A stretch of DNA of 64,000 bases from Blasia pusilla (Eukaryota): the NCBI GenBank assembly GCA_050084515.1, contig CM114271.1, positions 5,022,001 through 5,086,000 of the forward strand, read 5' to 3'. Position 1 is the first letter of the stretch. The number at the start of each line of letters is the position of its first letter. Both the position numbers and the translations under genes were made by a program. The notes under the pieces are model-generated. The model had not been told where the DNA came from. It worked only from the letters and a program-made list of their open reading frames with translations, and ran no database searches. Below are positions 14,606-47,630 of the stretch, piece by piece.

Positions 14606-14903
14606 CGTAGTTTTACAAAAATGGACAAGTGTGGATATCTCCACGGACGTGGATTGCAAGAGATGGGACCCATACTTATAGTTCATAATGGAATGCAAGG
14701 CAAGGGAAAATGGGGCAATAAGGGGGAAGGGAGTGGAGTTGGAGGGAGGAAGAAACAAGAGAGTGTGGAATGCGAAAGCAAGTAGGGAGAATGAAAAATA
14801 AGGGGAAGGTAGGGCTCCCATTGAAAAGCCTTCCACAAGATGGATATAAGTCCACGGATATGGACATGTCCGCGGACACAAACTTTATCCACATGCAACC
14901 TTA
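14606..14903 (+). mobile_element. hAT-type MITE, full-length copy
   Basis: Colinear with 62071-62387 and ends TGCAACCTTA. Flanks TTTGTGCC/TATGTGCT match at 6 of 8 positions. Confidence 0.8.
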
Positions 14904-17801
14904 TATGTGCTCTATTGTTAATTTCCTTACTATCATCCATATCACCAATGCAAATCTTGACCTATAATACCTAACCTATGAACCTTTTGGACATATCCAT
15001 CCTCCCCGAGGAATCCTAGTGAAAAGTGATATCATACGTGTTATGTGTCACCCTCTAAAGTATCCATGGTAGTTTAAAATATCGTATAACTCAAATAGAC
15101 CCACACAACACATAATATAAGTCTGCATGTACCACTCCCAAGAGTAGGTGAATTATCTCATCAATGTTAGAAAGATTACATAGCCTATAACTAAGTACAT
15201 GACCCTTCCAAATCATACCATCATGTATATTTGATAACAAAACACTCGATGGTAATACCTCCATAATTCTTAAGATAGCACGTCATGTTACAACATCCAA
15301 TATAAGTGAAAAATAGTTTCTCTGATGAAACCTTTGGATTGCATATTGATTAATCTCCTCCCCAAATAGCTTCATACCTCAACAAGTCTTCATGTTTTGG
15401 AATAGCAAAGTTCATGAATGACATATCTATGAATCTTCAAGCATCTTTGCCTATTGAGAGCATACATGCACCCTCATATCAAGGTTTTCGAAGCTCGACA
15501 CCTCACCAATATCATCACGAATGGCCATAGGTAAATCAAGGCATCTCATGTTCTTGTCCATAGATTAGAAAATAAGGTGAGAAGGATGCCTACATGCTAA
15601 ACCTATATCCCATTACCAACCACGACAACTATAGGCCCCAATCCCTTATGTGTATTCTCAAAGCCATACATACTTGCACAAACCATCTCCACCATCTGGA
15701 AAACTCTATCACATATATTATAGTGTGATGAAAAGTATTTATGAAGTGTATCCAAGAGGTCAAGGACGACTTGTTGAGGACTAGTGTAATTTAGGTATGC
15801 ACGTTGTCCCCTATCTTGAGGAACTTAAAATTTTGGGTAAGTTCCCTATTTTGACTATAGATGGAATTCCAATTAGGGATAGCGGCCCTTGATCACTAAA
15901 TATGTGTTTTCCATGATAAGCATATGCCTTTTAAGTTATTTGCCTTAATCAAATTTGTAACATTTCAAGTGGAATCGAGAATATTTTCTTGTCATCAAGG
16001 TGACAAGGACCGTTGCTACATGATCATACCTCCTCCTTTCAAGTACTTGAATCATCCCACGTCATAGTTTTCAATATGGTTAAACATACAACTTTTCAAA
16101 TCAATTATGTGGAACTTTGCAGTCTAGGTATCTACAATGTTTCTTATCTTTCCACAACAAGCACTGAGTCTAACTTGATCCCAACCTATGCATGTTTCTT
16201 AGCTAATCAACTCGATGATGGGTTTGCCAAGTGCTCTTTCATTTTCCTTTTCTCCTCCAAAATCTTGCTTACATTATATGCGCACGTCTTGTTCTCTAAC
16301 TTTTGATGTGTCAAGAAGCAACCTTTGGATTTTTTTAATTTATATTAACGATCCTTGTTAGTTTGAAATGAGTTATCTCATTTTTTCTCACACGGTTTTT
16401 TAAGGTTATTTATTTATTTATTCTCATAATATTCCCATGTAAAGCATAAACATGAATAATTGTACTCATTTTTCCTAAATAAAAAAAGTAGGACAAGAGA
16501 ATATTAAAAAAAGGGAGGTGAAATCTAAGAAGTTGTAACTCAACCCACCATCACCATATGGAAGAGGAAAAATAAGAGGTAGAGGATTGCGGTGAAGGGT
16601 ATCAAGCAACATAATGCCCAAATTTGACATAAGTGGTTGTGTTGGTGGGTGATGCTAGATTTCCATAAGTCTCTGATCTTAGATAGATATTGCACATAAG
16701 GAATCTAAAATGCTTTCGAGAATTTTATGAGGAAGTTGTTGGTGATAACAAAAAATACCGCTACATCTTTCAACAATGGGGAGAGATATCGTTGGTTGAT
16801 GGCCTCCCATGACGCATTTGCCTTGGGGTGTACCTTTTTGTAGTGGATTAAAGGAGATAATTTTACACGATGGATTGAATCCAACTTTGAGGATGGATTG
16901 GTGATTTGATTCCTCAAGCCAATCATGTAGAGACATCCTGGGCTTTTGGGAGATCAGTCAACCGAACAGGGTCCAAAGTAGACTTCTCCGACACACGAAA
17001 AAGCGTTGATTGGCCTGAGCGATAAAGCAGAGATGTATTAACAAGAGCGCGCAAAATTTCGGAAGTACGTGTACAGTTGTGTAGTTTCAACCGACCCAAT
17101 GACGTGCTACTCGCGACGAATAAGATCTTCAGCAGCACTTGGAGAGTGGTTTTGGACTATATCTTCATCTCTTTCTATTGATACCTGCTTTGATGCGCAC
17201 AATCTAAGCAAACCACGCCGACGATTTGGTGGTCCTCCATTCAAATCTGGGAATAGTCTAACAAGCCCGTGTGAAGATCGAACGACTACTTCAGCCGATG
17301 GGGCTGAAATGTTTGTCAATCGAGCTATAGAGTGGGAACATTGGTTTCATTCCCAAAAGATAAAACCTTTGGTTCAATCTGGTCGATTGTCCAAATATAT
17401 CTTAGAACCTATGAGTAAGAATACTATCCATTTCTTGGAGTGTATAGAAGAATTAGAAGGGATGAATGTTTTGTTGAATTTATTAGATCATATGATATGT
17501 ATACTTTCAATCAAACACAATAACTCAAAGATGCATTCACTTAGGCCACACAAGTTGGGTCTTCAACAAGAAGTGTCCCCTCCCCCCCTTAAAGAGTATT
17601 TATATCTTTTACTTCACTTCTCTTTACTTGGTCACAACAACATAAGCTCCATTTTTCAGTTTTTCAACCCCCTCTATACTGTGATTCCTCCTACATATAC
17701 TATCCTTTTTCCTCATGCTCCTCTTGTTGCAAGTTGGTGGTCATACCCTCTTCCGAGCCTAGGGCATTTTCAAGATATCTTTGCTTTTGCAGCCTTTTCT
17801 T

Positions 17802-18100
17802 TAAGATTTCATATGGACAAAGTCCATGCCTACAAACATGTCCATCTCCGTGGACTCATGTCCATTCTATTGAAGGACTTATCCATGTGAGCCCCACCTT
17901 GCCTTTATGTTCTATGCTTACTTGTTACTTCATCCCCCTAAATCCACTCCTTCCCCTCTTACTACTATGCCTGCCCCCGCACTACCTCCCACGATGAGCA
18001 ATAAGTGTAGGTCCCATCTCTCCCAATCCATGTCTGGGATATGTCCACACTTGTCCATCTGTATTTATCTTAGGGACTTGTCATCTTTTGTGCAACTATG
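17802..18100 (-). mobile_element. hAT-type MITE, full-length diverged copy
   Basis: TAAGATTTCATATGGACAAAG...TTTTGTGCAACTATG; reverse-complement homolog of 62071-62387. Confidence 0.75.
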
Positions 18101-21500: not shown

Positions 21501-24500
21501 CTTTGATTGGCCTATCGTGGGCTACAATCAGATATCTCGCCCTCCGATTGACTTCTCGAGCTTCCAGGTGATTGTCACCATACACGACCAAGCATATACG
21601 TACCTACGGATTAACCGGCTACTGCCACACAATTGTGGCATTTTGAGTGACGATGTCACTTGCCCTTAAGCCATCTCGTTTAGGACTAGATTGCCACATT
21701 GGTGGGTACACCAAGGCAGCCCTTCACTAGAGGTCCATCTTATTCTTGACGGCTCGCATTCAGCTTATTCGTGCATTCAAAATTACAACGTCATGATTTT
21801 AGATACTGCTTGTTGTCATTTAGATTCTATTGAATACTTCCAATTTCCATTTATTTGCAACTATCAGACTTGATTTGTGATATCTATGACTTTGCAGAGT
21901 CAAAGTCCAAGCTTTAGTATTGAGTATCAATTGTCATTTCGTGCCATCCACTTAATATGGGCAGTGAGATGGCCAATGATGTCTTGATTAATGGATTCTC
22001 AATTTACTTTCTGTATCTCCATGCATGGTGATTGGTAGCCACTCATGACAATAGAGCATCATGCCGTGCCACCCATAGCCCCAACGCACTACCGATTGCT
22101 ACGTTGTGCGGCTTATGGCCGCACCGCACCGTCTTGATCACGGAGCCGCATAAAAAATGAGGAGCAATACATTATTTTCTACTAGAGGAGGGGATGCTGA
22201 TGATTGTTGCATTCCACCATCGAGTGCCGTGATGTTTGTTGTTGTTTAGTACAACCATTGTCACATTTTACTACCGTAACCCCACAACATATCGAGGAGG
22301 TTTGAGCATTGTCAACATTAGAGAGTATGACTTGATGACTTGAAGAATTTATCTTTATGATTGAGTGGGGGTCAAGATTGCACTTAATGAGCATCAACTT
22401 TGACATCATTTTCATGTTACTCATTCTAGTCTATGCCCTACGCATGTGAGGGCTTCTGAGTGTTTTGTAATTGGGATATTGAGGTTTGTATGGATGTTGA
22501 GAGTATCATGGATATATGTGGTTAGGGGATATAGACATGTGTCAGATGTATAGAGTTGTGGGTATGCTAGGTCAATGAGACGATAGACCAATAGCCAATT
22601 TGTCACACCATGATGCTTGTTGCTGCACTTCACACATCTCAATGAGAGGTAGTGTAGATTGAGTGCCACATGTTTTAGTTATGAGTGATTGAGGAATTAC
22701 TCGCGAGATTGAGAGTGATTATGTGAGGGAGAACAAGGGTCATCATGGGATCCCTTAAAGACTTTGAGAGGCAAAGTGGTTTGCCCAAAGGTAACCCTAA
22801 GGATTTTATGCGTAGTGGCGCAAGGTTTTCAAAGTCTCCACGTGAGGGACCGGCTTGAACTTATTTTGTGTCTTCTTTTGATAGAAGAGAGGGCATAAAA
22901 GAATATTATTTAAGTGCATCCCCACACACGTTGAATGATCGTACCATTTGGGCATATGAGATGGACGATTGGCGTAAAGGACAATGTAGGTTTTCAAGAG
23001 TTGTAGATACCATAGAGTTGCATAACTTCGTCGTGGAATTTAGGAGTTGGTGTGAATCCTAGAGGGCTAGGAACTCCAAAGAGTTCTCCCCCTTCACAAC
23101 ATAGAACATGATATTTCAGCACCTAGAGGGGGTATCCATGGACGATTATAATGAGTGTTCCCATAGGTTCACGCCCAAGATTCAGGTTTAGACTCTACAA
23201 TGATCCAAATTACGTGTCATGGATTGATCCATTTACAAATGAGGAGGAGGAGCTAGGGAAGGCTACTTCCTCTTCCAAAAGTGAGAGTTAAGAAGGGGTG
23301 AGTTGGACTAGAGGAGTTATATTGTCGATTCGGGTTTGTCTTGGGTTTAACCATGTGGTTGAATTCTTCATGAAGGTGTGAAGGAACAACTAGGGATGGA
23401 TCGAGAAGTTGCAGAGCATCCACGACCTCCATGGGCAAAATGGAGATTTCTTAGCAGGAATTTACTCATATGTATTTTTTTATTAGTATCACTCAGGAGA
23501 TGATAGAGGCCTTGGCCGTACAAGCATGGTATGGGATGGTTGAACGAGACTTGGGGAAACAGGTGAGGGATTTTATACTCATACTACAAACATCACCTAC
23601 ATTAAGAGATGTCTTTGAGATAGTGGAGTGCATTGAGTGCATCATGGCATAGGAGAGTGTAGCAACCATGAGTTACGCACGAGAGCAGACACGATTTCTT
23701 GCACTACCATTACAACAACCTATACCTTAAGGGAGGAGTGTGATATTGGGAGCTTAGAGAGGTTATCATGAGCATGTGCCACAACAATCTTTGCCATCAT
23801 ACGTGGATCAAGAGTAGCCAAAAATTAGTTATTGGACATGTGATGGAGCCCATCGCCAAGAAGATTCTACTTGTTATTGTAGTGGATGCATGCCCAAGCC
23901 TAGAGGAATGGATGGGGCCCCACCGAGAGTGTGACCATTATAAATGGTATGGTCATAAGAAAGCTAAATTTTTTAATCTTAGGCCTTGAGTTATGTCTAG
24001 ATCAAGGGCCAGATAGGTAGAGCAAGTACAACACTAGATAGGGCACCTGAGTGAGTTGGCGATTTGGATGGGCCCATAGGTCATGCACCAAGTAGTTATG
24101 TAGGAGGACGAGGTAAAGGTCTGCCTCCAAGATACATTGAAGAAGATGCAAGGCTTGAGGGTGTAGGGATAGCTGCCTTCTAGATGCATTGAAGAAAATG
24201 TAAGACATGAGGGTGTAGGGATGGCTGCTTACATAGAGTCGTTGCATCAACATATTGTCGAGATGGCGTTCAGGTTACCTAATGTCAAGTTAATGGCATC
24301 GACCTTATATGCACACATGGAGGTTGCCACTATCCTTATTTATGGAGCAACTGTAGAGTTGGATACACATAGAGGGAAAGTCACGAAACTAACTAGGCTT
24401 CCTCAATTGTTCACTCTATCTGAGGCAATGAGGACCCTATTGATAGGTCTTGATCAATGTTCCTGGAGGTTGGATGTTGGTGGTGTACAAGAAACATGGA

Positions 24501-25669
24501 TGATGGAAGAAGTGAGCATGATAACTCCTATTGTCGATGCTTAGGCGCAGCTTATGGCGAGTATGTTGTTAGGGGCGGCTAGGACTATGTACCGTATCTT
24601 ATGGTTTTCAACTGTTAATGTTAAAACATTGGGAGGTCCGTCCACCGAGGTCTTTCAGTTGACTGCTACACTATACATGTGAGCATGGAGATGGTGTTAC
24701 AACCTTGCGTTTAGAGACAGTTGCAAAGGAGATGGCGGACTTGCCCTTGGAGCCTATGCTCGCGTTGTCCATCTCAGATTCATGGTAGGTTGTGGCTACT
24801 AGGATGGCGGAGATGCTCACTAGACGCGGAATAGAATGTGTCATGGTTTCTCCAAGTATTGTCTTACTGGATGATTGGGGAGAGATATTCCAATTGATTA
24901 GTCTTGGAGATGGAGTGTTTAGTCCGTAACACATCTTATTGGATCTAGGAGCACAACCCCTGATGTTGGGGAAGATGGTGTTTATAAGATTGGGCCTAAT
25001 GAGGGCCGATATGGAGAGTTGACCATTCAAGATACAAAAGTCCTTAGGTGGAGCAAGTACAACACAATTTATCACTCAAGATGAGGTTGTGGTAAGGATT
25101 CAACCAAGACATTGGTCAAATGAGTCCGTGGTGCAATCCAAGCCAATGATAATCAATCTTGAGTCCTATGACGTAATGGTTGATAAAGTAATGTTGTACT
25201 CGATGGGATTTCCCTTGGATAACCGAGAGAAGTGTCCTAAAGACCTAGATAGCAGTAAGATGAAGGATGACTTAGCTTGTTACACATTTGATTCACAATT
25301 GGAGTGATTGAGCGACGACAAGGAGAGGTGGCAACTTGATAGCATTCAGAAGTGCCATCTATTAGCATGAGAATTTGACTGAGGGGCATGTCCATACAAA
25401 GGACACATCCATGATTAACACATTTATGGAGAGGAGTGTTATGATAGATTTATCCTTCTATGGAGGGGAGGTGCCTTTTTGGGGCTTGATTGAGGACCTT
25501 TGACACTAGCTTATCCATTAAGCACGTTCATAATCATTGTAGATGGCGTGGAATAAGACCTTTGCACCACAACCTTTGCACCTTTGGGTTAGAGGAGCAT
25601 CACGTAGTAAGGAGTGCTAAGATATCGCCCTTGGACATCACATTGATTGTATGGCGCATCCCAAAGAAG

Positions 25670-28620
25670 GATATTTGAGTATTGAATCTCTTTGCAGAGA
25701 TCAACACTTGGTTGGCTCTTGTTTTGCATGCAAAATTTTGTGTGAAGAAATATTTGTATGTGGAGCAAGATAAGGTTGCAAGGTGCATCTCACTCCATGT
25801 GGTGCAGTTGTATCTTCATTTTCCGGACTTGTTATATGGGAGTGTCCTATAGTGTTACCGGAGTTTATTGCAGAGGGACATTTCCTTGTTAGGGGTGGAT
25901 CAAATGGGAACCATTGATTTGGTTATTGCACATTGCACATGTTGAGGCTTGTCTAGTGTTGGATGGGTGGTAGTTTAGTTGACACTAAATCTAGGTTATT
26001 TTATGAGATGATAAGAATCTTGGAGTACTTGCAAGAACATCATTCTTGTTGGGCGCCTACTCCTCTTAAACGTCAATATTTAGTGTAAAGAAGCATAGGT
26101 TCAATAGGATACGCTCTCATTGCTAACCTACACCTAAACACACTCATGTTAGTCTGGTCTAGGTCAATCAGCCTTCAAACCCACCGAGTTCTCAACTTGG
26201 CATCTGATCAAGCTAAAACTTCCATATTCCTAGCTTCCCCAACACGGACAAGTCTTTTGAGATTTATGACAAACTTTCTGGTTAATTGAGGCACCTAAAA
26301 TGGCGTTCGCGCACTTAGCAGTCCCAACTGTCCAATGGACCTCGCATGAGGTTGATGCCCTCATCAACGCATACCTGCTAATGTCAAGTCTTTTTGGGAA
26401 GTCGATCCCTTGACATCAAATTGCGTTTTGATAGCTAACTCGTAATTCCTCATCTTAAGTTGTCGCCTGCAACACTTAGCATCATTTAGCATCTCCTCTT
26501 TGATAAGCCTAGATCAGTTTGTCGAAACTTATCTAACATATCAAATAAGGTAACTAGGTTTGCTACCTAAGACTTCTTTGGCTCACAACACGTAAATATC
26601 CCACATGTTTACAAGGTACACAAGTCATACTACTTTTGGGTCTCTCTCATATTCGACTTAGGTGTGTCACTAAGTTCACTCATGCTATCATGAGGAACAT
26701 CACCCCAAGCCCCAAAATAGAGTGATTTGCCTTATCAAAGCTAGGACGAGCACAAGTGTTAGTCATCCCACACTTGGTCTTGTTCTAGGTGCTTATCTAA
26801 ATACTAGCTCTCATCTCAAATACTCTTTATCTATCCTCTTGACTTACAGCCTAAGCATATGAGGAACTACTCATTGCCATGCACTACCATATATAAATTG
26901 CAATCAACACAAGCATCGAATCTCCAAATCCATGCATTCTTTTATTGCAACACTAGCCTGATCTAGTTACAACGGCCTTTGGCCAAAGATTCCCATCATC
27001 ACAAGTCCTATCCCTTGCTACTCCATATACTAACGCATGTGCTTTTCCTGCATCGGTTTGAAGTCTTGTAACACCTCTTGCGCGTGTTCAAAATCTGCCT
27101 CGGAAATCCAAGTCGCCTCTTTCATATGGAAGCCCTTCCTCTTGATCAAGTTGTTGTACTTGTTGGCCCAACGCCTCATACCCAAGATGTTTTCCACCTC
27201 AAACTCTGGTTCTTTGTTTATGATCACCGATTGTGGGCTCAATACCTCTCTCCGCTCGAAACACACATTATCTTGAAGACACTTCTTCAATAATGACACA
27301 TGGAAAGTTGGATGAATCTTGAACTCTTTTGGCATCTCCAATGTATACACATCCTTAAATGGGTTTGCCTTGATCACATACGGTCCAACATACTTAGCAA
27401 ATAGCTTCGCGGACAAGTCCTTTGGAAGAGTGAGATTCTTTACACTTAACCAAACTTGCTGCCCTACTTCAAATCTCACTTGGCTTAAACTCTTGTTAAC
27501 ATGCTTAACAAACCTTAGTTGAGCCTTTGCAAGACTTCCTCTTGCCCACTCCTCCCACTCTCGCATCTCTACAAACAAACCTTTTACCGTTACTAGTGGT
27601 GTCTATGTCAATGTAGTACCCTTCAAAAGGGCAAGGTCAAGAGGCCCTTATGGCTCACATCCATCGCAAAGAGAAATAGTGATTCTCCCATTGCAAAATT
27701 CTTGATCGAATTGTAGCAATACTTAACCATACTTAGCCACTTCGCACAATCTGGCTGATAGGCGCTCACATAATTCCTTAAGTATTGATTCACGATACAG
27801 TTTACCTTTTCCATTTGTCTGGGGATGGAAGGCAGTATTGAAACTCAATTTGGTCCTAAATCTTATATTTACCAATGCTTCCAAAAATAACTAGTAAACT
27901 TCAGATCCCAATCCGAAACAATTCTCCTAGGCAACCCATGACCGCACTACCAGCTATCCATGAACAATCAAGAAGTCGTATAGGCCGTTGTAGAGTCCAT
28001 TGTTAGCAAAAATCTCCTAATTTTTTGAACCGATCAACTATCACAAGTATCGTACATTATGGAGAATGTACCAATCTTGGGCGATCCGCAATTACGAGTG
28101 ATGAGTAGTGCACATCATGTGTGTGCATGGATTGGCCCAATAGTAGTTTAAGATGTGGCAAGTGGAAGTTCACAAGCACATTTCCCACCTCTATGGTGGA
28201 TCAACTTGGTGCCACACGAGGTGTTAGGAAATTTATGCACGAATGGAGCGACCCTCCCTTTTGTTGGTGAATTCCATTTTGGATCCAGGATGTTGATCAC
28301 ATGTAGTGAGGCACGATGATCGACCTTCGTTAAAAGTGGTCAACATGATTGGAAACATGATTGGCATGCCACGGGCAGCGTTTCCCACTTTTGTGAGTTT
28401 TCCCATCTCTTATGCATAAAGGAAGGTCTTCGGATGATCATGCACAATGGTTGGTGGATCCCATAATCGATGAGAGAGAGCGGGCAATGGGGTTCCCCAC
28501 ATGAGTGATGGTAGTATCCTTACTATCAGAGGCATCTTGACATCATGTCTTGGTTTTGGTGATGGATCTGAAGTGCTTGACATGGATTCTCAACTTAGGA
28601 ATAGCTAAGAAACATCAAAT
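25670..28620 (+). pseudogene. DNMT3-like C5 DNA cytosine methyltransferase domain inside the Gypsy pol, split into 25670-26046 and 28051-28620
   Basis: Motifs read: I VLNLFAEI (25679-25702); II YLYVEQD; III RDISLL; IV IDLVIAHCTC*GLS (about 25913-25954); V L.DTKSRLFYEMIRIL; VI YIMENV (28053-28070); VIII QAHFPPLWWINL (about 28173-28208); IX ERERAMGFP (28472-28498); X-like SEAS*HHVL..VMDL. The order is I-X, unpermuted. Confidence 0.88.
26047..28050 (-). mobile_element. Chromovirus (chromodomain Gypsy) 3' remnant: integrase, chromodomain and 3' LTR (26047-27003), inserted into the DNMT domain
   Basis: ORF 27030-27578 contains KYVGPY...IHPTFHVSLLK and the chromodomain EFEVENIL...KGF..KEATW. ILVIVDRF lies at about 28025-28050. 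The LTR is bounded by TG...CA, preceded by a purine tract, and homologous to 43663-45328. Confidence 0.9.
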
Positions 28621-31600
28621 GATGTTGCAAGAGGTCATTACTATTGCACTTGTTAGCCTTACGCCTAGTCGGACAATTGAGGCAATGGTTGGGGGTAAGA
28701 TCTAAAGCAATCAAGAGAGATAACCTTGGACTTCTTGGGATATGTTTTAGGCACTCCAAGAGATGGTATCTACAACATCAAGTGTGGTTCATGGTCTTAC
28801 ACACCGAGGAGCAAGGGGAGATGAGATGTTTGAGCTAGCTGCATGGGAGAACTCGAGTGCTTTTATTCAAGATGGGGTTGCACCATAGCAACCAAAACCA
28901 TTAGTGTGAGAGAGTCTTACAATAATCATGATGGAGACTTGGGAGCCACATATGGGCCCAGATAATAAGGAGTCACGTGAGTTGTTTTGCATTCAATATG
29001 TTGATTTGGGTACACTAAAGGATCTAGGGATCCACATTGAATTCTCTTGCGATACGCCAATCTTTGGACGACCCTATAGGTATAGTGATATGGAGATGGG
29101 TTTGATTTGAAGCAAGAGATAAGACTTGGCTAGGGCACGAGTAGTGGAGATGTCAAATGGAGAGTATACATCTGCCATTGTCATGCTAGCCAAGAAGGAT
29201 GTGCATGGCAACTAGACGGGAAGGCAAAGGTGTGAAGATTATCTGCCTATTAATCAACAAGAAGATAAAGTCCAATACAAATGCCATACCCACTCCTAAG
29301 GAGATATTTAAAGGTATTGAGCATGCAAAGGTTTCCAGTTTGTTGGATCTTTAATCCAAACATAATTAGCTCCCTATCAAATAAGAATACATATCAAATT
29401 CGGCGTTTGGGGCATCAATTCTCATGGGAAGGAGTATTTATACTAGTGGCAATTCTTACCATTTGGGTTTAAGAACACCCCAACAGAGTTTCTGAGGATT
29501 ATGGACAGAATCTTGGTAGGTCTGGATTTTGCTAGATCTTACATTGATTACATCCTAGCTCGCATCCTAGTCTTTAATGCCACGGTTGAGGAGCATGAGC
29601 GACATCTGGAGGAGATATTTCTACGATTAAAGTTACATGGTTAAAGCTTTATCGATGCAAGTGCAAGTTATTCTATGACCAGATTGAGAACTTGGGTCAT
29701 ACGATATACCTAAGAGACCTTGGTGTTCAACAGATGAAGGTAGAGGCTATCTCACGCATTCCTCATCCTATAGATGTAAGTCGAGTTCGCGAATTCATGG
29801 GATTGGTGAACCTCTATTGATGGGACACCAAGGGTTTCAATTTGATTGTGAACCCAAAAACCTAGTTGATTGAGGTGGATCATGAGTGGCACGTACTAGG
29901 GGGATGAGCAAGAGAGAGCATTTTAGTTGCTCAAAGACAAGTTGACCTCCGCGCGTATATTGAGGAGACCTATGGGAGGGGCTTCCTTTCCAGTTGCATA
30001 CAGATTGGAGTACATTGGAGCTTGGAGCACTACTCATCCAACATGATGATGAGGGTAGAGAGTTTTGGGTGGCTTACAATAATTACTTGAACAATGTTGC
30101 AAAGGAAAAATATAACTTGTATGAGGTTCAGTGCTTGGTTGCAATGTGTGATCATGGATTATTGCACATTCCAAATGTTACTTATTCAAAAATCCCCTTA
30201 CCATCCTTACTAATCACCAATAACTTGAGTGGATGAAAGAGTTTGACAAGCTTACATGGACGTTTGCTAGGTGGGCTCTATTGTTGCAAGAGTACCCTTT
30301 CCAGTTGGTACATTGATTTTGGACGCGCAACTAAGATGCATGTTCAAGTTAGCAAGATGCGACTAGAGCTCATTGGTATGGAGAGAGTGATGAGGGGATG
30401 GTGCATGGATGATACGAGTCCGTCTATTTGCATTTTTTGGCTATGGTGAGCCATGGTATTGGAATTTCAATGGTAAGATCCAATGGAGAGTCATTAGATC
30501 CAAAGGTTAGTGAGGAGATGATAAGTGGTCTGGATATCCATGAGAATGGGATAGTCTTGGACCACCTATGTATTGGAAACATTCCGCGCATAGGGGGTAC
30601 GTGCTAGAGAGAGAGAGAGATCGGATCCTACAACAAGCTATACGGTTCTAGTGGGAGGAGACAAATGTCTTATGAGTTTGGAAGGATTGTACAGTACATA
30701 CAGTGCCTTATCCTTGAGAGAGAGCACGATAGGTGCAACATGCCCATGAGGAGTGGGTACACTTTGGAGTGAAGCGGACATATAGCTTACTCGAGATATA
30801 ATATTGGTGGTGAGGCATGCAACCTAATGTTTAGCAATTTGTTGTCAGATGCAAGGTATATGTTCGAGTTTGAGCATCCTTCAACGCTCCAACTCCACAC
30901 ATGTATCCACTACCAATCATGAGTAAGGCTATAGACGGATTTTGGATTTTGTAGGATCTTTACCTTTAACAAAGTGCCATAGTTGTTATGTGATGATGAT
31001 GGTCAAGCACTTCTCGAAGTGGATAAATTTGGTTGCATTTCCTAAGAAATTGAGTGAGGGAGTAGCATATGAATTCCTAAATCAAGTGATGAATCATTAT
31101 GGTGCACTAGTTGAGGTGTTGACACAGTTTCATGGGGAGATCTAGGCCTTGTATGACCTAGCGTTGATCAAACACCACACTGATTCACGAGATGATCCTA
31201 AGGAAAATGGACTAGAAGAGAGAGTTTTTCATATGGTGAAGAGAGGTTTACGTAAGTATGGTATGAAGAGAGGTCACATAGGAGATTGGGACCTACAATT
31301 GCCATGGTTGGCAATGGGATATAGTTTGAGTAGACATGCATTCTTAGTGTCTTTCTTATCTTACTTGTTGCTTTATGGCCGGGAGTATGACAAATTTGCG
31401 TCCATTTGTCAGTGAGATGTTGAACTTTGATATCCCTTATGTATGGATGCAAATATGTTCCTAGAGGGCAGAGTTATTTCACAGAGTTATGCCCATGGCT
31501 ACTTTGAGGTATGCGCCTATTCAAGGAGGTGGTTATCGACTGACGATACATAGGTTTCATTAGGGAGACTATGTCTACTTGCATCAACTTATATCTACGA

Positions 31601-31788
31601 TGTTGGATGCGAGATAAGGACACACCATATTGAGAGTGTATGAGGTATTTCCAATAGGTGTTTTCTTATTGGATGGATGTAATGGTATGGTTTGGAAGGA
31701 CCATATGAATAATCATACGCCATATCATCTTCCTAACATTGATAGTACTTTTTATCCGAGTTTAGCAAGAGTTCCTATAGGCTTGCAT

Positions 31789-31905
31789 TATATGTTGTGT
31801 GGTTCTTCCCATAATATAGACACCATGCTAGTTTGTGATGGATGTTCGAGAGGATAGCACACGACATGTGTGATGCCATCCTCTCACTGGGATTCTTCTG
31901 GGAAA
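31789..31905 (+). pseudogene. PHD finger at the integrase C-terminus (copy 1)
   Basis: Reads YMLCGS...MLVCDGCSRG*HTTC. Copy 2 gives CMLCGS...RGRHLAC...WTCP and copy 3 gives IPRGGWICP, together a C4HC3 consensus. Confidence 0.8.
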
Positions 31906-32649
31906 ATTAATATGCTATATATATATAGTTAGTTAGTAGATACTAGGTAGTCATAGATCCAAACTTATGTTGGTAACATGGATAAAAAGAAGGTGGCTAA
32001 AAATCGGGCTTCACGAGCACGCGAAAGTTTTGCTATTAGCGTCGAAGATACGTTTATCATGGTAGATAGGGATAGATTGGCTATATATAGTTATAGGAAC
32101 CTAACCACCAGCTAAGGAAGAAATTGGAGATATTTTGATACATGATCATCTCAATGTTCAAATGCCATAAGTGAGTTATTGTGAGTATGGTATCTTGTGT
32201 GTTTTAAGTTTGTAGTTGGTGACAGTGATGTATGTTGTGTAGCAATGTGTATGTACACAACATACTTCTAGTACATCGTTGGCAAGTCTTATAGCCAGCG
32301 ATTAAATTACCACAACTTGTATATCGTTACCACACAACACAATAACAAACTAAATATAAGAGAAAGAGATGGTGGATTCTAATTCCATTTTGGGAAGAGG
32401 AGAATTGGGTTCATCACGAAAAAATCCAAATAATTAGAATATCCAATCTAAGTTTACCTTTATCTTTGTAATAGTTAGATGGTCGTTTCACTATAATTCT
32501 AGGAGGCTTGAAGGATGGTCGTTAGATATATTGGGGGTAGTATACCTTGGACCCATCCAGATTAGATGCATGTAAGGATCTAACTTCATGCAAGTCCCAT
32601 ATTAAAAAATATTAAAAAATTGATGGAGATAGGGAATAAACACACATAT

Positions 32650-33640: not shown

Positions 33641-33683
33641 CTCTCTCTCTCTCCTCCTCTCTCTCTCTCTCTCTCTCTCTCGA

Positions 33684-33716
<33 letters not shown>

Positions 33717-33723
33717 TCTCTCT

Positions 33724-33757
<34 letters not shown>

Positions 33758-33782
33758 CATCTCTCCTCTCTCTCTCTCTCTC
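33641..33782. repeat. Interrupted (CT)n microsatellite
   Basis: Directly visible. Confidence 0.95.
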
Positions 33783-38528: not shown

Positions 38529-41500
38529 GATTTTTTCTCCAACATAGTTGAACAAGATGTTAGATTTATGGATTTAGGCTTTTAGAGACTCTGTAAATGT
38601 GTAGTTGGGACTAGTAGGTCTCTCAAAATCAATTTGATCTAATGTTAATTGAATATTGCTCTTGTTAATGGATTTTTTTTAAACTAAGTGGGAGTAATAT
38701 CAAATGTGGAAGCTTTGCAAAGAGCACAAGATGCAAACTTAGACCTCGTATGTTATTCTATCCCCTTCTTCTCAATAGTCTATTGATAGTCACAACATGG
38801 ATAAGACTTATCACACTTTTTAGTCGTAGAGTTAAAGGGTGGACAATTAAGGTATGATTTCAATTTGGAATATGTCAAGAGTACACTAATTTTCTTGGAA
38901 AGTTGGATAATTTTATGAAAGGGTTAGTTTGAAAACTTTGTAACATCTTTGAATGTATTCATTTTTTTAAATATTTTTTAAAATCAATACTTTCATATTT
39001 TTCCCATCTATCAAAGTGATTTTCTTGTTTTAATTGAGATGTGATGTTTTTCTAAGGAAATGACCATTTTCAATGATAAAATAGAAGTTTTTTACATTAT
39101 GTGCTAAGTAAATCATGGCCTTACACATACCTACATCTTAAATAAGAAATACAAATCCCAAAAATCAACTTTAAATCCTTAAAGATAGTATATGAAACTT
39201 AAAAAAATGGCAAGGAAGAAATGAAATCATACTAGTATGGAATACTATGGATGTCAATTGACCTGGCTCACGTCGAGGATCTATGAATGAATGCAATCTA
39301 CGAATTTTGTCCATGAAGCCAATTCACGAGCCTTCTCTAATTCTTTTCTCTTGTTTTGATTTAACTTTATAGTTAGTTAAAAATTAGAATGAGGGATGGC
39401 TTAACTAATCAAATTTAATTGTAAAAATTTTATTTTAAGATTTGAATTGATTCATTTTGAGTTTCAAGATTTAAATTGCATGAGTAGAAATAATTAATTC
39501 TGATATGATTAAAATTTTAAAATATGGAAAAAAAATTCACAGTAGAATTTTCCAAAGTGTGCTTGATAATTATTTCTTAAACCTTAAAATTAAAATTATT
39601 TTATAAAAATCCATGCTAATAAAAACTTCCAAGAAAATCAATTTTCAAGTTTAGTTTAAAGAAAAAAAATTAAAATTTAAACTCAATCTACCTCCCAAAA
39701 AAGAACGATGATTAAAATTTAGAAAAACAGAACATTCAAATTTATTTTCACAAAGAAAATAGGAAATACTTGGGAAAGGAAATTTTATTTAGAAATAATT
39801 TTTAGATAAAAAATATCAAATAAGAGGAAGACTTGGTAAAAAAATGAACTAAATCGTACTTTTTTTTTAATGATTTAAGGATAAAGACTTAAAACAAGAT
39901 TAAACAATTTTCCCTTTATTTCTCACTTTCTCGTTAGTCTGGAGATTTTTTGGAGATGTGGGTAGTTTATAATTGTCTTTGTTATTCTCGTATGGCCTTA
40001 AGTAAAAAGAATGAATAAATATATTCTTATATATATTTTACGACACACTCTCTTAGCAAATGCGTTTAAATGCCAAACCACATATTAAACCAGAAAAAAA
40101 TATATAGATATATTAGTATAAACGAAGAAACTAGGTCAAAACCCTAGTTTTCCAATAAGTTTCTCAAATAGTCGGGAGTTGCCATGGTAGGGCATTCTCA
40201 AATTTCTCATATGTCAAGTTATCGAAGCTCTATTGTTAGCGCACATATGGACTAGATAACTTAGAATTTGACATAGATTTCAGTGATTGGTTCGCATCGT
40301 TTTCCGTTATATATGTATACATACACACGCACACACACATAATTCTCTTTTTTTTTAGTATCTTTGTAGATTTTATTTCTTTTTATACTTGTTATTACAT
40401 ATATCCAAAATATATGAATTGTATATTTTTTTATTTCCATATTTCATTTGAATATTCTCAACATGTAGAAATGAAAAAAAATAGTGAGGTGTATTTATTA
40501 ATCAGAGAGCTAATTCAATTTATCAAAATAGTCCGTATCAAACCACATAACATTTGCACTACAAGAACTCTCATTGATTTTCTCTCCTAGCTACATTTGA
40601 AGAACGATCGAGTCCTAATTAGGCTATCACGTAGCACTAGTGGCATCATGTCTACATCTTGATGTTCACAATCGATCAATACACTATACCAATCATAGGA
40701 TTCCACTAATTGATAGGATGGTAGATCCTCCACATTTATATGTAAAGGGTGATACAACAAAGAACTACGAGTACCCAATCTATCTTTGTCTACATATTTG
40801 GAAAATTCTTCCTCTACCATACTGGAGAACTATATCCCTTTAGGAATAAAGGGGGGTGGCCCCTTTTGTTGTTTCTGGGCCGGTTCTGGCCTTCGCATAC
40901 TCAACTCTTTGAGTCCCCCCTTTTTTGTATTTCGCATAGATTTTCCATCACCCACTTTTTATTGAGACCTCGGATCTATTTAGCAAGTAGTTGGAAATAT
41001 GTTCCCCAAAGATACCCTAAACGTGGATTGGATATCGTGAGATCTTTCCTCCATCTTGACCCGAGTGATCCAAGTTTCTTCCATTCATCAATAAGGCTTA
41101 AAATATAAAGTTTCTTGTTCGCCCCCACTTGAAGGTTCTCTTCCTCTAATAGGCAATCTAATGCTGAAATTTTATGTTGTATATACAACAATGTATTCGA
41201 ATCCACCACATTTCCCTCCATATCTCCATTACGGATCTTCCTTTGTTCACTTAAGTATTCGTAGAAATTATTTGGGAATGGAATTTGGTTGTCGCACTTC
41301 AAAGATCAAGATGCATATTCCCACAAACAGTGAAGAAGAAACACACAAGAATATATGCAAAAACACTATATGGAACCAATCCAATCAACTCCATACATGC
41401 AATACATATCTTCCTCTTGGAATCTAGCGAGTTCCATGACTCAACCATAACAATCTTCCAATCGGATCTGAAATAGGTATCCATCTCTATTTGATCCACA

Positions 41501-41799
41501 ATCAAGATGGATTTATCCTACAATGTTACGGTGTTAAGATATCTATCAATCTTTCTTAAAAAATCAATCATATTTGCCATCATCCTCTTCGACTCTTAAA
41601 CTTTTGCCTCACCGCCTCACCACATTTATAACAATGGTCACCCCTCACGTCCTTAAGGATTTTCTTGTACTTGGGTTTAACTTACACATGCACTGTAGCC
41701 ATACTATCTCAACTTCAAGATAATTGTAACAATTTTCTCCATCATCTCCACATTAGATCTATTAATGAGTTGCTTTGCTTGCAATTTCATAAATTCCTC

Positions 41800-44700
41800 A
41801 AAGTGAGTTCCAAGGGAAATCCAAAATGACAAATCCTACAAGGAGGGTCCCTCTAAACGATGCACGAGTCAAACATGGCTCATAGATATTTATGATGTAG
41901 ACATTTTTTGATTGAATATATAGCACCGATGGGTTGGTGACGAAAGATTGCCATAGGGGCATGTGAGCGGGAAAAGGAAATGACGTTTTGAGAACCTCTC
42001 TAGTTGCTTCAACTTGACCATTTTGGGGTCATGGCCAAGTCAAATCAATGAGAATTTCTCTTGTAACCCTCATAACCAAAGGAGCACCAAGCAGAACATC
42101 AGAACTCATTGGGCTCACGCTAGGATGGTTGCGCGTTGGAGAGGTCTCTTGAAGGAGATACAAGATATGAGATGAGTACATGCCATCAGATACACAAGTC
42201 TTAAGAGCAATGTTCTCTAAGGAAACAGATATGGAGAGGAGGATTCGTGAAGGATACATGAAGGACACCCAAGCAAGAGAGTACCTAACAAAGTTGAAGC
42301 GGGTGAGAAGGAGGCCAACAGAAGTTTGAGCCATGGTTTGCTAAGGTTTAAGCAGAGCAGGATATATGTGGGTGAAGGCAAACAGCAGACAAAGGTGTTG
42401 GGAAAATGTCATGACGGACCCTTGGCAAGACATAAAGGGGAGAGATCCACACTGTCTATTCTGACTAAGAGGTTCTTTTGGCCCAACATGAAAAAGGATG
42501 TTTCTCAGTATGTAAGGACATGTGTAATTTGTTAAGCAAATTTGAATAGAGTTTATTTTGAGAAGAAGCAAGGCTTACTTGATCCTTTTTCGATTCCATA
42601 AGGACCCTTGAAGAGTAGAAGTATGGATTTTATTACGAGTCTTATTGAGTTTGAGGGATACAATGCTATACTTGTGATAGCTTTTCAGTTTAGCAAATTG
42701 GGGAGCTTCATTTTGACGATGGATCCCACAATCCTGACTGTTTGTGGATCGTTCACGGCAAACTCATGAGTTGCCTAGGAGTATTGTCTTATATCGAGAT
42801 CCAAAGCTTACCAATGTTTTTTTTGAAACATCTATTCATAACGTTTAGGAGCAAGCTGAGTTTTAGTACAGCCTTTCATCCTTATATAGATGGACAAACA
42901 GAAAAGGTAAACTCAACCATAAATCAGTATTTAAGGAAGTATGTAAGTGCAAACCAGCGATAGTGGGCTAGGTGGCTAAGTATGGTTCAGTATTGCTACA
43001 ACTCGACAAATCATTCTACAACTGGAGAATCTCTGTTTCTTTTGGCGTATGGATGTGAGCTAGAAGGGCCTCTTGACCTGGCCCTTTTGAAGGGTACTAC
43101 ATCAGCACATACTCAACCAAAAATTACAGAAAGTTTGTTAGTGGAGATGCAAGAATGGGAGGAGTGGGCAAGAAAGAGTTTTGTAAAGTCTCAACTAAGG
43201 TACGTTAAGCATGCTAACAAGAGTCCGCGCCAAGTGAGATTCCAAGTAGGGGAGCAGGTGTGATTGAGTGTCAAGAACCTCACTCTTCTGAAAGAGTTAT
43301 CTACAAAGTTGTCTGCCAACTATGTTAGACGATATGTGATCAAGGGAAACCTGTTTGAGAATGTTTATACATTGGAGCTTCCAGAAGAGTTCAAGATTCA
43401 CTCGACTTCCCATGTGTCATTATTGAAGAAGTGTCTTTAAGATAATGTGTGTTCCGAGTGAAGAAAAAGAAAAATTGGAGTTCGAGATAGAGACCATGCG
43501 TTGAGACATCAACATAAACCTTCTTAATGTCAAGTTGAGGAGCTACCATGTGACATCAAATTTCATTCAAGTAGATTTAATCAACAAAAGATGTTGCAAG
43601 ACTTCAACGGTTGCATGCAAAAATTAACATGTTTAGTACATGGAGTAGCTAGAGACATGACTTGTGACTATAGGAAGCTTAGGCCAAAGGTCTTTGTAAC
43701 TAGAACATGCTAGTTTTGTTATAAGGGAATGAGTGGATTGGGAGATTCGATGCTTAGGTTTTAATTGCAATTTGTATATGGTAGTGCATGGCAATGAGTG
43801 ATTCCTCATATGTTAGGATGTAAGTCAAGAGGAGAAACAATGAGTATTTGAGGTGAGCACTCGTCTTTGGATAAGTAGTGAGAATAGGAAAAAGCGTTGG
43901 ATGACTAACATTTGGGCTCGCCCAAACGTCGGCGGGGCATATCATTCTCTCTTGGGGCTTGGGATCATCTCACTTGTGATAGTATGAATGAACTTAGTGA
44001 CGCACTTAAGTCTAATACGAGAGCGACCCAAAAGTAGTATGACTTGTGGATCTTATAAACAAGTGGGATGTTTACATGTTGTGAGCAAGTGAAGTCTTTG
44101 GAAACATACTTAGTTAGCTTATCTGATAGGTTAGGTTAGTTCCAAGGAACAAATCCAAGCTTATCGAAGAGGAGAAGCTAAAAGATGTTAATTTTTGCAT
44201 GCAACAACCTAAGACTTACGCCAAAAGAGAAATTGTTGATTAGCTACTTGAATGAAATTTGATGTCAAGGAGCTGGCTTCCCAAAAGGACTTGACATTAG
44301 AAGGTTTATGTTGATGAGGGCATCCACTTATTAAGAGAGGTGAGCGTTATGACTCCCGTAGCCAAACAAGCGGCAAGGGAAATATCAAAACTCTACTAGG
44401 CTCATGCTATGATGGTTGTGCATTGGAGAGGTCTCTTGAATAAGACACAAGATATGAGACGCGACCAAGGTTGAGTGTTTCATGCATTTTTGGTCGCAAG
44501 TGAGGAAACCTGAACCAAACGTGAACCGAGACTTGAGACAAGTCGAATCTAGTTGAGAACCGGACTTGGAACTAGACTAGAGTTTGGGTTTTGAGTGTAT
44601 TGCAAACCATAAATGTTGTAGCCAAGATTCATTTTGGACAAGTAAGGTTGCATTGGAAATCTTATGCAAAGCATACTCCAAAGCACCAAAGATCTTAGCA

Positions 44701-45328
44701 AACTAACGAGCAGAGGTTAAGGAATTTCCCAAAAACAATTAAATGGGGATTTGGGTTGAGGGCCAAAAAGAAGGGCTTGAGAGTCTTTTCCCAAAGATTA
44801 GGGGGAAGGCAGAGAACCCCATCAGTATTATAAAGGGGGAGGGCCTCCAAGAGTGCTTGGAACCCAAACCCCACTTTGGGGCGCCACAAGGTAAACCAAG
44901 GGCACAGAATGGATCCAAAGGTTGGCGTTGGGATGGAAACCCAAGCCAAGTCTAATAGAGTGGATTTTGGAGGTCGTTCTTGGATTCCAACCCCGAATCA
45001 TTTAAGTGGATTTCCGTTAAGGTCTCATGCGAGGTCCTTTGGACAATTGGGATCGCCGGGTGTGAGAACATTGTTTTAGGTGTCTAGACTATGCGAAAAG
45101 TCTATCCCAAGTCTCAAAAGACTTGCATGTGCTAGGAAGTGAGGAACTAAGAAGGTTGAGCTTGTTGAATGGCTTGAGGCCAGGCATCGCGGAGGTGGAA
45201 GGCTGATTGACCCAGACGAGAGTAACGTAAGTATGTTTGAGTGCAGATCAGCAATGAGAGTGTATCCTACTGAATGTACGCTTCCGCAACACTAAAGATT
45301 GACGTTCAAGAGGAGTAGACGCACAAAA
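41800..45328 (+). mobile_element. Chromovirus Gypsy, internally deleted: LTR fragment, integrase-chromodomain (about 42180-43610) and 3' LTR (43663-45328)
   Basis: Contains HDGPLARHKG...FFWPNMKKDV..YVRTCVIC, SMDFIT, STAFHPYIDGQTE and FQVGEQV. Same family as 26047-28050. The segment 42112-42172 recurs at 44399-44460 inside the LTR. Confidence 0.88.
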
Positions 45329-45339
45329 ATTTCTCACGA

Positions 45340-46055
45340 AAGAAACATAACTTGCTATATAGGACATGGATCTGGGATCCTCTAACTAGGTGTTAGTGAT
45401 GTCGATCGTTCCTTGCGGTTCCTTGACCATGGGATTCGTCCAATATCACGTTTTATGACCTATCCTAGTCCTAATGACACAGTACTAAAATTCGCATTTC
45501 ATCTATTGACATTGAAACAACAACAGTTACATGAATATTCTATGCTCTTCCAAAAATGGTTAACTTTGATGATATAAATAACTTATCGTAGAGTGATAGA
45601 TAGGCCTTAATTCCATTAGTAGCCACTATACAAAGGTGGAAGGAATAACGATGAACGATATAACATAGCAAAGAAGAAAACAAAAACAAGGAGAAACAAA
45701 TTTGATTTCTCATATATTCATATTGTGTATGTCAATTTCCACAATAGCTACGTGGTATGGGTAAGGATGGAGAATGATCACCTTTATTGCAAAGTATGAA
45801 TCGTAGTACATAGATTTTTGGCTCCCTCGTGAACTCCATCAAAGTTGCAAAATGATGGTTCCCATCCCATATATAAAATTGCAAAACGTTTGTCTATTTG
45901 TTCTCTATGAACTCCACATCTTTCCGGAAATCGACATCCCATCTTCTCCAATTGTCATCCTTTTTGTTACGATCAACCCTTGTTATAAAATGATGGATCT
46001 TATTCTTGTTGTAAGGTTGCACATAAAATGGTGGGAAACTCTCAAATTTTATGCT
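45340..46055 (-). pseudogene. Decayed coding remnant with a ParB/Sulfiredoxin-like DGNH(R) motif (may continue at about 40560-41790)
   Basis: Reads ...WRRWDVDF...FYIWDGNHHFATLME..., then after a frameshift IKVIILHP...IHNMN. The final CAT codon of DGNHH could derive from CGT (Arg). Confidence 0.45.
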
Positions 46056-47422: not shown

Positions 47423-47630
47423 GTACCTCTCAAAGATGTATCTCGATCTCCTCAAAGATGCCCAACGGATACTTATCGATCTATCCTAAAAGACGTGAGA
47501 ACTACCGTGTGCATGCACATCTCTACACAACATATATTGTTGTTATTGACTATGACCACATACATAGAAGATACCATACTCACTCATGGCATCCAAATAT
47601 CAAGACAATCTTGTACCAAAATATCTCCAA
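47423..47630. repeat. 208-bp near-identical direct duplicate of 46600-46807 (LTR segment)
   Basis: Only two C/T differences seen by eye. Confidence 0.9.

Follow-up and report, generated by a model that had tools for sequence, protein, structure and literature searches.

Among described elements, one of the nearest counterparts is KnitGypsy-Dnmt3 of Klebsormidium nitens, an LTR Gypsy element for which the main text of de Mendoza et al. (2018; PMC5890265) describes an unrearranged Dnmt3-like domain in the pol open reading frame (ORF), with its key catalytic residues kept. The same text assigns the capture to the K. nitens lineage and proposes self-methylation of new cDNA; the term "PHD" has no occurrence in it, this count leaving aside Fig. 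4c and the supplements. Chromoviruses carry another chromatin-related addition, a C-terminal chromodomain on the Gypsy integrase that is regarded as an integration tether (Gao et al., 2008, as cited in PMC6673714). PHD fingers have been reported in retrotransposons as well, including Gypsy elements of Chlamydomonas, in passages of PMC6673714, PMC8557442 and PMC9940879: the second of these calls the PHD a common accessory domain in C. reinhardtii, and the legend for Gypsy-7a_cRei in the third places it between RNase H (RH) and integrase (INT), with no methyltransferase (DNMT) named there. More generally, according to the text of 10.1101/2021.11.30.470311, fusions between chromatin domains and transposon domains most often involve PHD and Chromo. 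Finally, the EpiLTRs of Cymbomonas and Euglena are described as combining a chromodomain with a DAM adenine methylase and a DNMT4-related DNMT, in a text that keeps the streptophyte Gypsy-DNMT3 apart, as a case of its own from earlier work (10.64898/2026.05.21.726589). Since both Gypsy-Dnmt3 (PMC5890265) and PHD fingers in Gypsy elements (PMC6673714, PMC9940879, PMC8557442) have thus been published, as far as these texts go, the idea pursued here is not new in kind.

The window, i.e., the whole 64,000-nucleotide stretch of Blasia pusilla DNA analysed here, has a G+C content of 40%, contains no N and is rich in decayed repeats. The family represented in it is, like KnitGypsy-Dnmt3, a Gypsy family with a Dnmt3-type domain in pol, and both hosts are streptophytes; Klebsormidium also has an integrase with a PHD tail (P0033, comprising integrase and PHD only). 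However, the window relics stand beside Marchantia sequences, with relatives in Calypogeia and volvocine algae, and the connection of P0033 to KnitGypsy-Dnmt3 is an indirect one. With the chromoviruses the family shares a small histone reader a few dozen residues past the integrase C-terminal domain, and a tether role has been proposed for both, but the reader is a PHD finger and the family belongs to a clade of its own without chromodomain-tailed members. The Pfam domain SH3_Tf2-1 was found in the window's chromovirus and in none of the PHD-tailed relatives scanned.

Chlamydomonas provides other green-lineage Gypsy elements with an accessory PHD, compared here by description only: REM1, reportedly described as PHD-bearing by Perez-Alegre in 2005, and Gypsy-7a_cRei, in which the PHD lies between RH and INT, whereas that of the window family is at the integrase end and is accompanied by a DNMT. 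The EpiLTRs, as described, also join a histone reader and a DNA methyltransferase in one LTR retrotransposon, although the window family pairs a PHD reader with a Dnmt3-like writer. In animal DNMT3, the ADD domain, a PHD-type reader of the H3 tail, is adjacent to the catalytic domain and interacts with it within one enzyme. The window family similarly encodes a PHD-type reader along with a Dnmt3-type catalytic domain, but at opposite ends of the polyprotein, and there was no DNMT3 ADD among the best 60 PDB matches of its PHD, the matches being of the CHD4, BHC80 and KDM5 type. A literature search of running text, exclusive of figures and supplements, found no text pairing a PHD with DNMT3 in one Gypsy element, and nothing on PHD-tailed Gypsy elements in lycophytes. 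The REXdb clade Chlamyvir was considered as a PHD carrier and rejected, as the REXdb paper and a 2012 chromodomain paper both call it chromodomain-bearing and neither contains "PHD"; "methyltransferase" and "liverwort" are likewise absent from the REXdb paper.

Three relic copies in the window

Judged by self-comparison and by a family profile, the three PHD sites in the window are homologous relics of one Ty3/gypsy family, the integrase of which ended in a C4HC3 PHD finger. In self-BLASTN, 31519-32176 (+) aligned with 47381-46755 at 71% over 662 nt, and 14905-15334 with 46916-47351 at 66% over 444 nt. The integrase tails of 119 relatives were combined into a profile, which, when searched against the six-frame translation of the whole window, matched copy 1 with 103 bits (E 2.6e-33), copy 2 with 51 and 24 bits (E 3.9e-17 and 7.8e-9) and copy 3 with 19 bits (E 2.8e-7; the PHD half of this last match alone has 0 bits, E 0.21), and gave no significant match in any of the six frames beyond these sites. 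Three homologous copies lie where an earlier note on this DNA, made from its letters alone, had placed them.

That note had also reported a canonical C4HC3 consensus. We did not use a consensus of the copies; instead, PHD spans and ligand states were read codon by codon and copy by copy, with X at stops (Table 1). The motif was correctly recognised, and the eight zinc ligands are invariant in all ten close relatives aligned, but the last Cys is lost from every window copy, its codon now being TAT, GGT and GGT in copies 1, 2 and 3, respectively. Seven of the eight ligand positions are retained in at least one of the three copies; given the missing eighth, the full C4HC3 pattern is not obtainable from the window alone. 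Copy 1 has one stop, where the TGG (Trp) before the His has become TAG, and one +1 frameshift before C7, beyond which the last two ligand codons lie, slightly past position 31905, where the earlier note had ended the finger. Copy 2 also has one stop (a TAA ahead of W-x-C), and copy 3 has a frameshift and stops. No copy has all eight ligands, thus there is no functional PHD in the window: these are relics of a PHD and not PHD fingers.

The Pfam model PF00628, proposed in the earlier note for a three-copy consensus and applied here to each copy, put copy 1 alone above its cut-off, and this in the short stretch but not in a long read-through. With the gathering cut-off at 24 bits, the short stretch of copy 1 scored 28.5 bits (E 1.6e-6), that of copy 2 fell below the cut-off (16.8 bits, E 0.0068) and that of copy 3 gave no match. 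In long read-through translations, copy 1 reached just 20 bits, and copies 2 and 3 had no match at E 0.05.

Copy 1 (22976-32262, +) is, from its collinearity with relatives, a near full-length dead element with the order gag-protease-DNMT-RT-RNase H-integrase-PHD. Metagenome element L005 is collinear with it by tblastx from gag to the start of the LTR (2116-9343 of L005), and the relatives used in tblastn are collinear with plus-strand 28925-31878 across RT, RNase H, integrase and PHD. The order protease, RT, RNase H, integrase, collinear in copy 1 and in the relatives, is that of Ty3/gypsy. From RT to PHD, the copy carries 37 in-frame stops and five frame changes along the track of P0008. Pfam found neither a gag nor a protease match upstream of the DNMT in copy 1 or in L005; both were placed by tblastx and by eye, the protease with a motif that reads LLDSGA in the L005 translation and LLDLGA in that of the window. 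At the 3′ end, the stretch beyond the PHD is 76% identical to 46993-46755 in copy 2, and 32224-32262 is matched by L005 9305-9343 (tblastx), just ahead of the LTR repeat of L005 at 9346. A 5′ LTR partner of this 3′ flank was sought in the window and not found.

The earlier note had placed a DNMT in the same element as the PHD, and this is borne out by same-strand remnants lying, as the profile and tblastx matches read, between the protease and RT of copy 1. They were located with an HMM of the DNMT-like domains of 32 relatives, run against all six frames of the window. The domain is, on these matches, complete but split by a nested chromovirus fragment (Table 1). ENV and a D-E-R-E-R-A-M-G stretch are still legible in copy 1 and the motif IV Pro-Cys in copy 2, with stops in both copies. 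DNMT motif matches on the minus strand at 50001-60001 were rejected as chance, and Pfam found nothing there. The plus-strand Pfam scan covered the window outside 1-22000 and 34002-64000 (40001-45501 of the latter being included), and the minus-strand scan covered 13001-16998, 27033-27602 and 44001-60001.

The nested fragment has an ORF at 27033-27602 (-) with matches to SH3_Tf2-1 (E 2.1e-14) and Chromo (E 2.9e-5; 24.3 bits, just below the cut-off of 25.1). This is the chromodomain that lies nearby, on an opposite-strand element; the C-terminus of the copy 1 integrase itself has a PHD and no chromodomain. With about 2 kb of chromovirus inside copy 1, a chromodomain tail and a PHD tail are neighbours in the window. 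The insert (26046-27941) is 73-75% identical to 45329-42764 in self-BLASTN.

Table 1. Features of the three element copies in the window.
Feature	Position	Strand	Evidence or remark
Copy 1, gag-like region, decayed	22976-23865	+	tblastx, L005 2116-2982, three collinear pieces
Copy 1, aspartic-protease-like region, decayed	24732-25220	+	tblastx, L005 3802-4293
Copy 1, Dnmt3-like C5-methyltransferase, N-terminal half (motifs I-IV region)	25622-26049	+	DNMT HMM positions 3-109 at 25664-25960, E 1.7e-8, and 117-139 at 25981-26049, weak, E 0.68; tblastx, L005 4690-4884 at 25622-25816
Nested 3′ fragment of chromodomain-bearing Gypsy (chromovirus)	26050-28034	-	interrupts copy 1 DNMT
Copy 1, Dnmt3-like methyltransferase, C-terminal half (ENV, motif VIII and IX region)	28029-28699	+	DNMT HMM positions 138-207, 205-266 and 274-333 at 28035-28612, E 4.6e-7, 1.5e-9 and 6e-7; tblastn, P0020 130-249; tblastx, L005 5116-5787
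Copy 1, reverse transcriptase (RT), decayed	28913-29890	+	tblastn, P0008 15-339; Pfam RVT_1 E 9.9e-4; tblastx, L005
Copy 1, RNase H, decayed	29900-30340	+	Pfam RT_RNaseH E 1.9e-5, RT_RNaseH_2 E 2.4e-6; tblastn
Copy 1, integrase	30571-31491	+	H2C2 zinc finger 30718-30870 (Pfam Integrase_H2C2 E 9.5e-9), catalytic core 30927-31385; tblastn, P0005 and P0008 at 52-55% identity
Copy 1, integrase C-terminal stretch before PHD	31495-31788	+	56-60% identity to Marchantia P0001, P0002-P0004; tail HMM
Copy 1, PHD relic	31789-31924	+	C1-C8 = Y C C C H C C Y, 6/8 ligands kept; tblastx, L005 match around 31825-31860
Copy 1, 3′ untranslated stretch and probable start of 3′ LTR	31937-32262	+	LTR ends not placed
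Copy 2, 5′ part: protease-like region and DNMT N-terminal half	50345-48286	-	tblastx, L005 3046-5103 at 50345-48307; DNMT HMM 49-137 at 48540-48286, E 8.7e-12
Copy 2, integrase C-terminal stretch and PHD relic	47377-46989	-	tail HMM, codons, Pfam PHD 16.8 bits
Copy 2, PHD relic	47123-46989	-	C1-C8 = C C S Y H C C G, 5/8 ligands kept
Copy 2, 3′ untranslated stretch and LTR start	46988-46674	-	self-BLASTN, tblastx
Copy 3, integrase C-terminal part and PHD relic, 5′-truncated within integrase	15652-14982	-	tblastn, P0005 496-724; tail HMM; tblastx, L005 8367-9047
Copy 3, PHD relic	15114-14982	-	C1-C8 = Y C Y Y H R C G, 3/8 ligands kept

Copies 2 and 3 are truncated. In copy 2, everything between the 5′ part (50345-48286) and the 3′ part (47377-46674) is missing, and 46600-46807 is duplicated at 47423-47630. 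Its DNMT homology ends at profile position 137, which is the break point of the DNMT in copy 1, and the chromovirus sequences homologous to the copy 1 insert are located at 45329-42764; the breakpoint common to both copies could stem from an old duplication that took place after the nesting. Every copy in the window is dead and has no function of its own.

Intact relatives and the lineage

Unlike the window copies, some of the relatives are intact. A read-through translation of 31495-31911 matched four proteins (among 24 candidates) with E values of 1.9e-35 to 5.4e-41 and 56-60% identity; all four carry PF00628 and end in a complete C4HC3 finger straight after the integrase C-terminal region, and one of them is a Marchantia polymorpha hypothetical protein. 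A protein search with P0003 gave 205 proteins at E<=1e-10, and PF00628 was combined with rve, H2C2, RVT or RNase H in 117 of the 120 matches listed in the result table. Named sources of relatives are Marchantia, Calypogeia, Klebsormidium, Haematococcus, Pleodorina and Tetrabaena. In five relatives scanned with Pfam, RT, RNase H, integrase and a C-terminal PHD were found in a single ORF, save that the shorter P0005 is without RT; the PHD scored E 2e-9 to 4e-8 in P0005, P0008 and P0020, and PF00628 scores across the relatives scanned were 31.9-50.4 bits. The claim that a PHD occupies the integrase end, where chromoviruses have their chromodomain, is supported by these ORFs. Together, the family-profile matches and intact ORFs show that the PHD is real and is part of the integrase, with which it shares a frame in every unbroken ORF. 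The earlier note had named missing zinc ligands, or a PHD out of frame with integrase, as what would speak against its reading; at the family level the ligands are present and the frame is shared.

A metagenome contig scan with alignment A1 yielded three loci of the window's clade (L001, L002 and L005), and a scan with P0020 alone yielded no match. L005 has a 307-nt terminal repeat pair of 94.5% identity, clipped by the locus end, with gag-like and protease-like stretches upstream in translation; its DNMT is an ORF piece of its own (449 aa) before RT, matching PF00145 with 36 bits (E 7e-9). Among 80 metagenome Gypsy loci, 30 have a chromodomain-like tail, two a PHD tail and three a DNMT. A protein atlas lookup with P0020 returned scores that were all <0.9 and serve as leads only. 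In a search of sequencing runs for the element, no RNA run was listed, and the DNA runs had small shares.

A DNMT-like domain was recognised in 51 out of 127 relatives. In 47 of these it stands between RNase H and integrase, in three (P0020, P0023 and P0079) it lies upstream of RT, in one ORF with RT-to-PHD, and the remaining one is a gene model from Marchantia that contains part of the DNMT together with a PHD. Residues 1-345 of P0020 are closest in the PDB to DNMT3B, 3A and 3C (E 1e-6), before M.HaeIII and plant DRM; as a protein query, the DNMT region of P0020 found just three further proteins. Catalytic residues are largely kept among the 32 relatives compared (motif IV Cys in 30, motif VI E-N in 30 and R-x-R of motif VIII in 30), with the Pro of the Pro-Cys motif kept in just 8 of 32. 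Pfam left the DNMT of two of five clade II proteins unmatched and placed that of another two under the cut-off. A weak D12 adenine methylase match after the PHD of P0063 (E 0.0035) was set aside, being absent in all five other clade II proteins.

Trees were built with FastTree, with local (SH-like) support and midpoint rooting. The RT-to-PHD tree (46 rows) splits into clade I (21), which includes window copy 1, P0020 and P0023, and clade II (25). DNMT lies upstream of RT in all clade I sequences that are long enough (P0020, P0023, L001, L002, L005 and the window). In 18 clade I rows no DNMT is visible; the sequence ahead of RT in these rows is no longer than 226 residues, which is too short for one. 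In clade II, 22 rows have the order RH-DNMT-integrase, two (P0090 and P0104) lack DNMT, and P0079, with its DNMT ahead of RT, is sister to the other 24. DNMT placement differs by clade, with protease/RT in the clade to which the liverwort sequences belong versus RNase H/integrase in that of the volvocine ones. The integrase-PHD tree (128 rows) puts the three window copies and two Marchantia proteins in a 10-row clade with SH-like support of 97. In the RT-integrase tree (113 rows), 53 PHD-tailed sequences and copy 1 form one clade (SH-like 100), separate from 25 chromodomain-tailed and 34 untailed Gypsy loci and with no chromodomain-tailed row inside it. Because the root is a midpoint root, the tree gives no direction, be it a PHD replacing a chromodomain or one joining a tail-less ancestor.

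Type and possible role of the PHD finger

The best 60 PDB matches of the PHD are headed by CHD4 PHD2 (4e-14) and PHF21A/BHC80 (1e-11), and include PHF12, KDM5A/B, ATXR5, BAZ2A/B, UHRF1 and AIRE; ING, BPTF, TAF3 and PYGO are not among these 60. We take CHD4, BHC80, KDM5 and the other listed fingers to be readers of the unmodified H3 tail, with H3K4 unmethylated. A G-W-H is invariant in the ten aligned relatives, hence it is Gly and no aromatic residue that stands two before the His, presumably the site of the cage Trp in H3K4me3 readers. Acidic residues of the AIRE, CHD4 and BHC80 fingers contact K4; such residues were not evident in the Marchantia-type tail sequences inspected.

By analogy to the chromovirus chromodomain and to the nearest solved PHD fingers, we propose that the PHD of active elements would tether the integrase and cDNA complex to nucleosomes via the H3 N-terminal tail. 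We put the chances that the PHD is such a chromatin tether for integration slightly short of even. A preference for unmethylated H3K4, suggested by the same fingers, is rather more doubtful; under it, tethering would most likely take place at unmethylated H3K4, and new copies would thus come to lie away from active promoters. The DNMT, for its part, would methylate the new DNA of the element or the DNA surrounding it, in line with the proposal made for Gypsy-Dnmt3. The earlier note had proposed that the PHD guides integration and forms a targeting module with the DNMT; that reading is supported in part, namely for the PHD tail and for the DNMT in the same element. The distance between the two domains in the window's clade exceeds 1100 residues, protease, RT, RNase H and integrase being placed around them, and processing could leave them on separate mature proteins.

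The presence of reader and writer in one polyprotein also allows an arrangement in which the PHD serves the DNMT in the manner of an ADD domain, sensing unmethylated H3K4 and licensing or directing methylation, so that the two would form one reader-writer module and integration sites would be unaffected. DNMT and PHD do occur together throughout the lineage (51 of 127 relatives; 22 of 24 clade II RT-to-PHD rows), with a DNMT in all clade I sequences of sufficient upstream length; in 47 relatives it lies immediately ahead of the integrase-PHD part, and it is Dnmt3-like. We nevertheless hold this to be unlikely: the DNMT of the window's clade precedes RT, at the distance from the PHD given above, the PHD is joined to the integrase C-terminus, which is the site of other Gypsy targeting domains, and P0090 and P0104 in clade II have a PHD without a DNMT. 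PHD fingers as a class include H3K4me3 readers, and the finger could instead read an active mark such as H3K4me3, by which insertions would be steered to promoters or open regions, as in some retroelements. This is very unlikely for a finger whose best 60 PDB matches include no ING, BPTF, TAF3 or PYGO chain, whose top matches are readers of the unmodified tail, and whose G-W-H leaves no aromatic residue two before the His. What does speak for it is that cnidarian retrotransposon PHDs are described, in the text of 10.1101/2021.11.30.470311, as related to that of the H3K4me reader PYGO.

The PHD pattern itself could in principle be a chance arrangement of Cys and His, or a piece of a host PHD gene beside transposon debris. 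Copy 3 has no Pfam PHD match, copy 2 is under the cut-off, and the annotation of two Marchantia relatives is that of ordinary genes, hypothetical or PHD-type, all of which such an origin would accommodate. Yet the family profile reaches E values down to 2.6e-33, over 100 proteins have PHD and integrase in one frame, the LTR-flanked element L005 is collinear with the stretch, and one Marchantia gene model, P0007, contains the element's DNMT fragment along with a PHD. An origin by chance or from a host gene is already contradicted by the profile, the in-frame relatives and the collinearity with L005, and is close to untenable. The reading that we favour, of the window sites as pseudogenised copies of one old Ty3/gypsy family with a PHD tether and a DNMT acting as set out above, is reasonably probable as a whole. 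Taken separately, the identity of the family and its architecture, as read from the sequences, are very likely to be right.

Implications for the Gypsy lineage

The Dnmt3-carrying Gypsy type is not peculiar to Klebsormidium, as it extends to the Marchantia-grouping relics in the window, to another liverwort and to volvocine algae. In this lineage the DNMT accompanies a PHD-tailed and not a chromodomain-tailed integrase, providing a second, independent type of histone-reader tail on Gypsy integrases that is relevant to integration targeting. The DNMT domain is too divergent for Pfam-based surveys, which overlook much of it. Two Marchantia gene models, of PHD-type or hypothetical annotation, look like remains of the element.

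A broader proposition is that this Gypsy lineage is old and green-plant-wide (volvocine algae, Klebsormidium and liverworts) and nearly always joins a writer of the Dnmt3 type to an integrase with a PHD that reads the H3 tail, and that the two would co-operate, with insertion at unmethylated H3K4 and methylation of the element's own copy. We consider this fairly unlikely. If such lineage-wide coupling were true, capture of the DNMT would be far older and wider than the one event in Klebsormidium that was reported in 2018, and the element would be a transposon-borne counterpart of the ADD-DNMT3 logic. The wider interest lies in the lineage and not in the dead copies of the window, and its members offer a natural pairing of reader and writer for questions about how the two may co-operate.

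A breakpoint common to two of the relics

The Dnmt3-like DNMT of copy 1, the plus-strand relic of the PHD-tailed Gypsy family, is broken at position 137-139 of the DNMT profile, an HMM built from the DNMT-like domains of 32 protein relatives (window positions 25981-26049 / 28035, +), and the gap is filled by chromovirus sequence at 26046-27941. In copy 2, a relic on the opposite strand, DNMT homology stops at 48286 (-), which is the same profile position. Within the region of copy 2, positions 45329-42764 hold a homologue of the chromovirus filler, approximately 3 kb from the copy 2 breakpoint. It is possible that the common breakpoint reflects an old inverted duplication of the nested structure, followed by rearrangement.

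Repeats and neighbouring Gypsy elements

A pair of nearly identical direct repeats lies either side of the copy 2 relic of the integrase tail and PHD. The arrangement looks like 1.25 tandem copies of an 823 nt unit, and further copies of the 208-nt sequence diverge by approximately 30%. Old, dead sequence thus seems to have been duplicated locally in recent times.

Repeats and chromodomain-type Gypsy copies in the window
Feature	Position	Strand or orientation	Details
Direct repeat, 208 nt	46600-46807, 47423-47630		99% identity
Dispersed repeat, ~280 nt	1204-1427, 14621-14903, 17802-18099, 62069-62387, 63224-63552	both	68-82% identity
(CT)n microsatellite	33641-33782		~73 units, 86% matches
Chromodomain-type Gypsy, 27-kb copy	27033-27602	-	open 190-aa ORF
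Chromodomain-type Gypsy, 42-44 kb copy	42302-44327	+

One copy of the dispersed repeat, a candidate solo LTR, SINE or MITE, directly follows the PHD relic of copy 3, which is 5'-truncated. Tracts resembling the (CT)n microsatellite were also seen near 9010, 13065 and 38470. Pfam identified Integrase_H2C2 and SH3_Tf2-1 in the 42-44 kb chromodomain-type copy; the ORF of the other also gave SH3_Tf2-1, together with a chromodomain that scored close to the threshold (24.3 bits). As these two copies stand beside PHD-tailed relics, both Gypsy tail types are therefore present in one window.

The family in other genomes

The family profile detected a DNMT-like domain in 51 of 127 relatives, whereas precomputed Pfam assigned the DNA_methylase label to only 8 of the 120 relatives listed. 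In the alignment of 32 such domains, Cys, E-N and R-x-R are retained in 30, while the catalytic Pro-Cys motif has its Pro in eight and, in most members, Glu, Ser or Ala at that site. In clade II relatives with the RH-DNMT-integrase order (P0125, P0063, P0064 and others), the protein continues beyond the PHD for approximately 300-360 residues, a stretch that matches no assigned family. P0089, a DNMT-integrase-PHD protein of this eukaryotic transposon family, is labelled as coming from a bacterial (Spirochaetia) metagenome-assembled genome; its source is probably a eukaryotic contig wrongly binned into that genome.

Two relatives from Marchantia polymorpha are annotated as genes, encoding a hypothetical protein and a PHD-type domain protein (P0001 and P0007). 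The latter has a DNMT-like fragment at residues 169-333 and a PHD at its C-terminal end. Both look like remains of the PHD-tailed Gypsy retrotransposon family.
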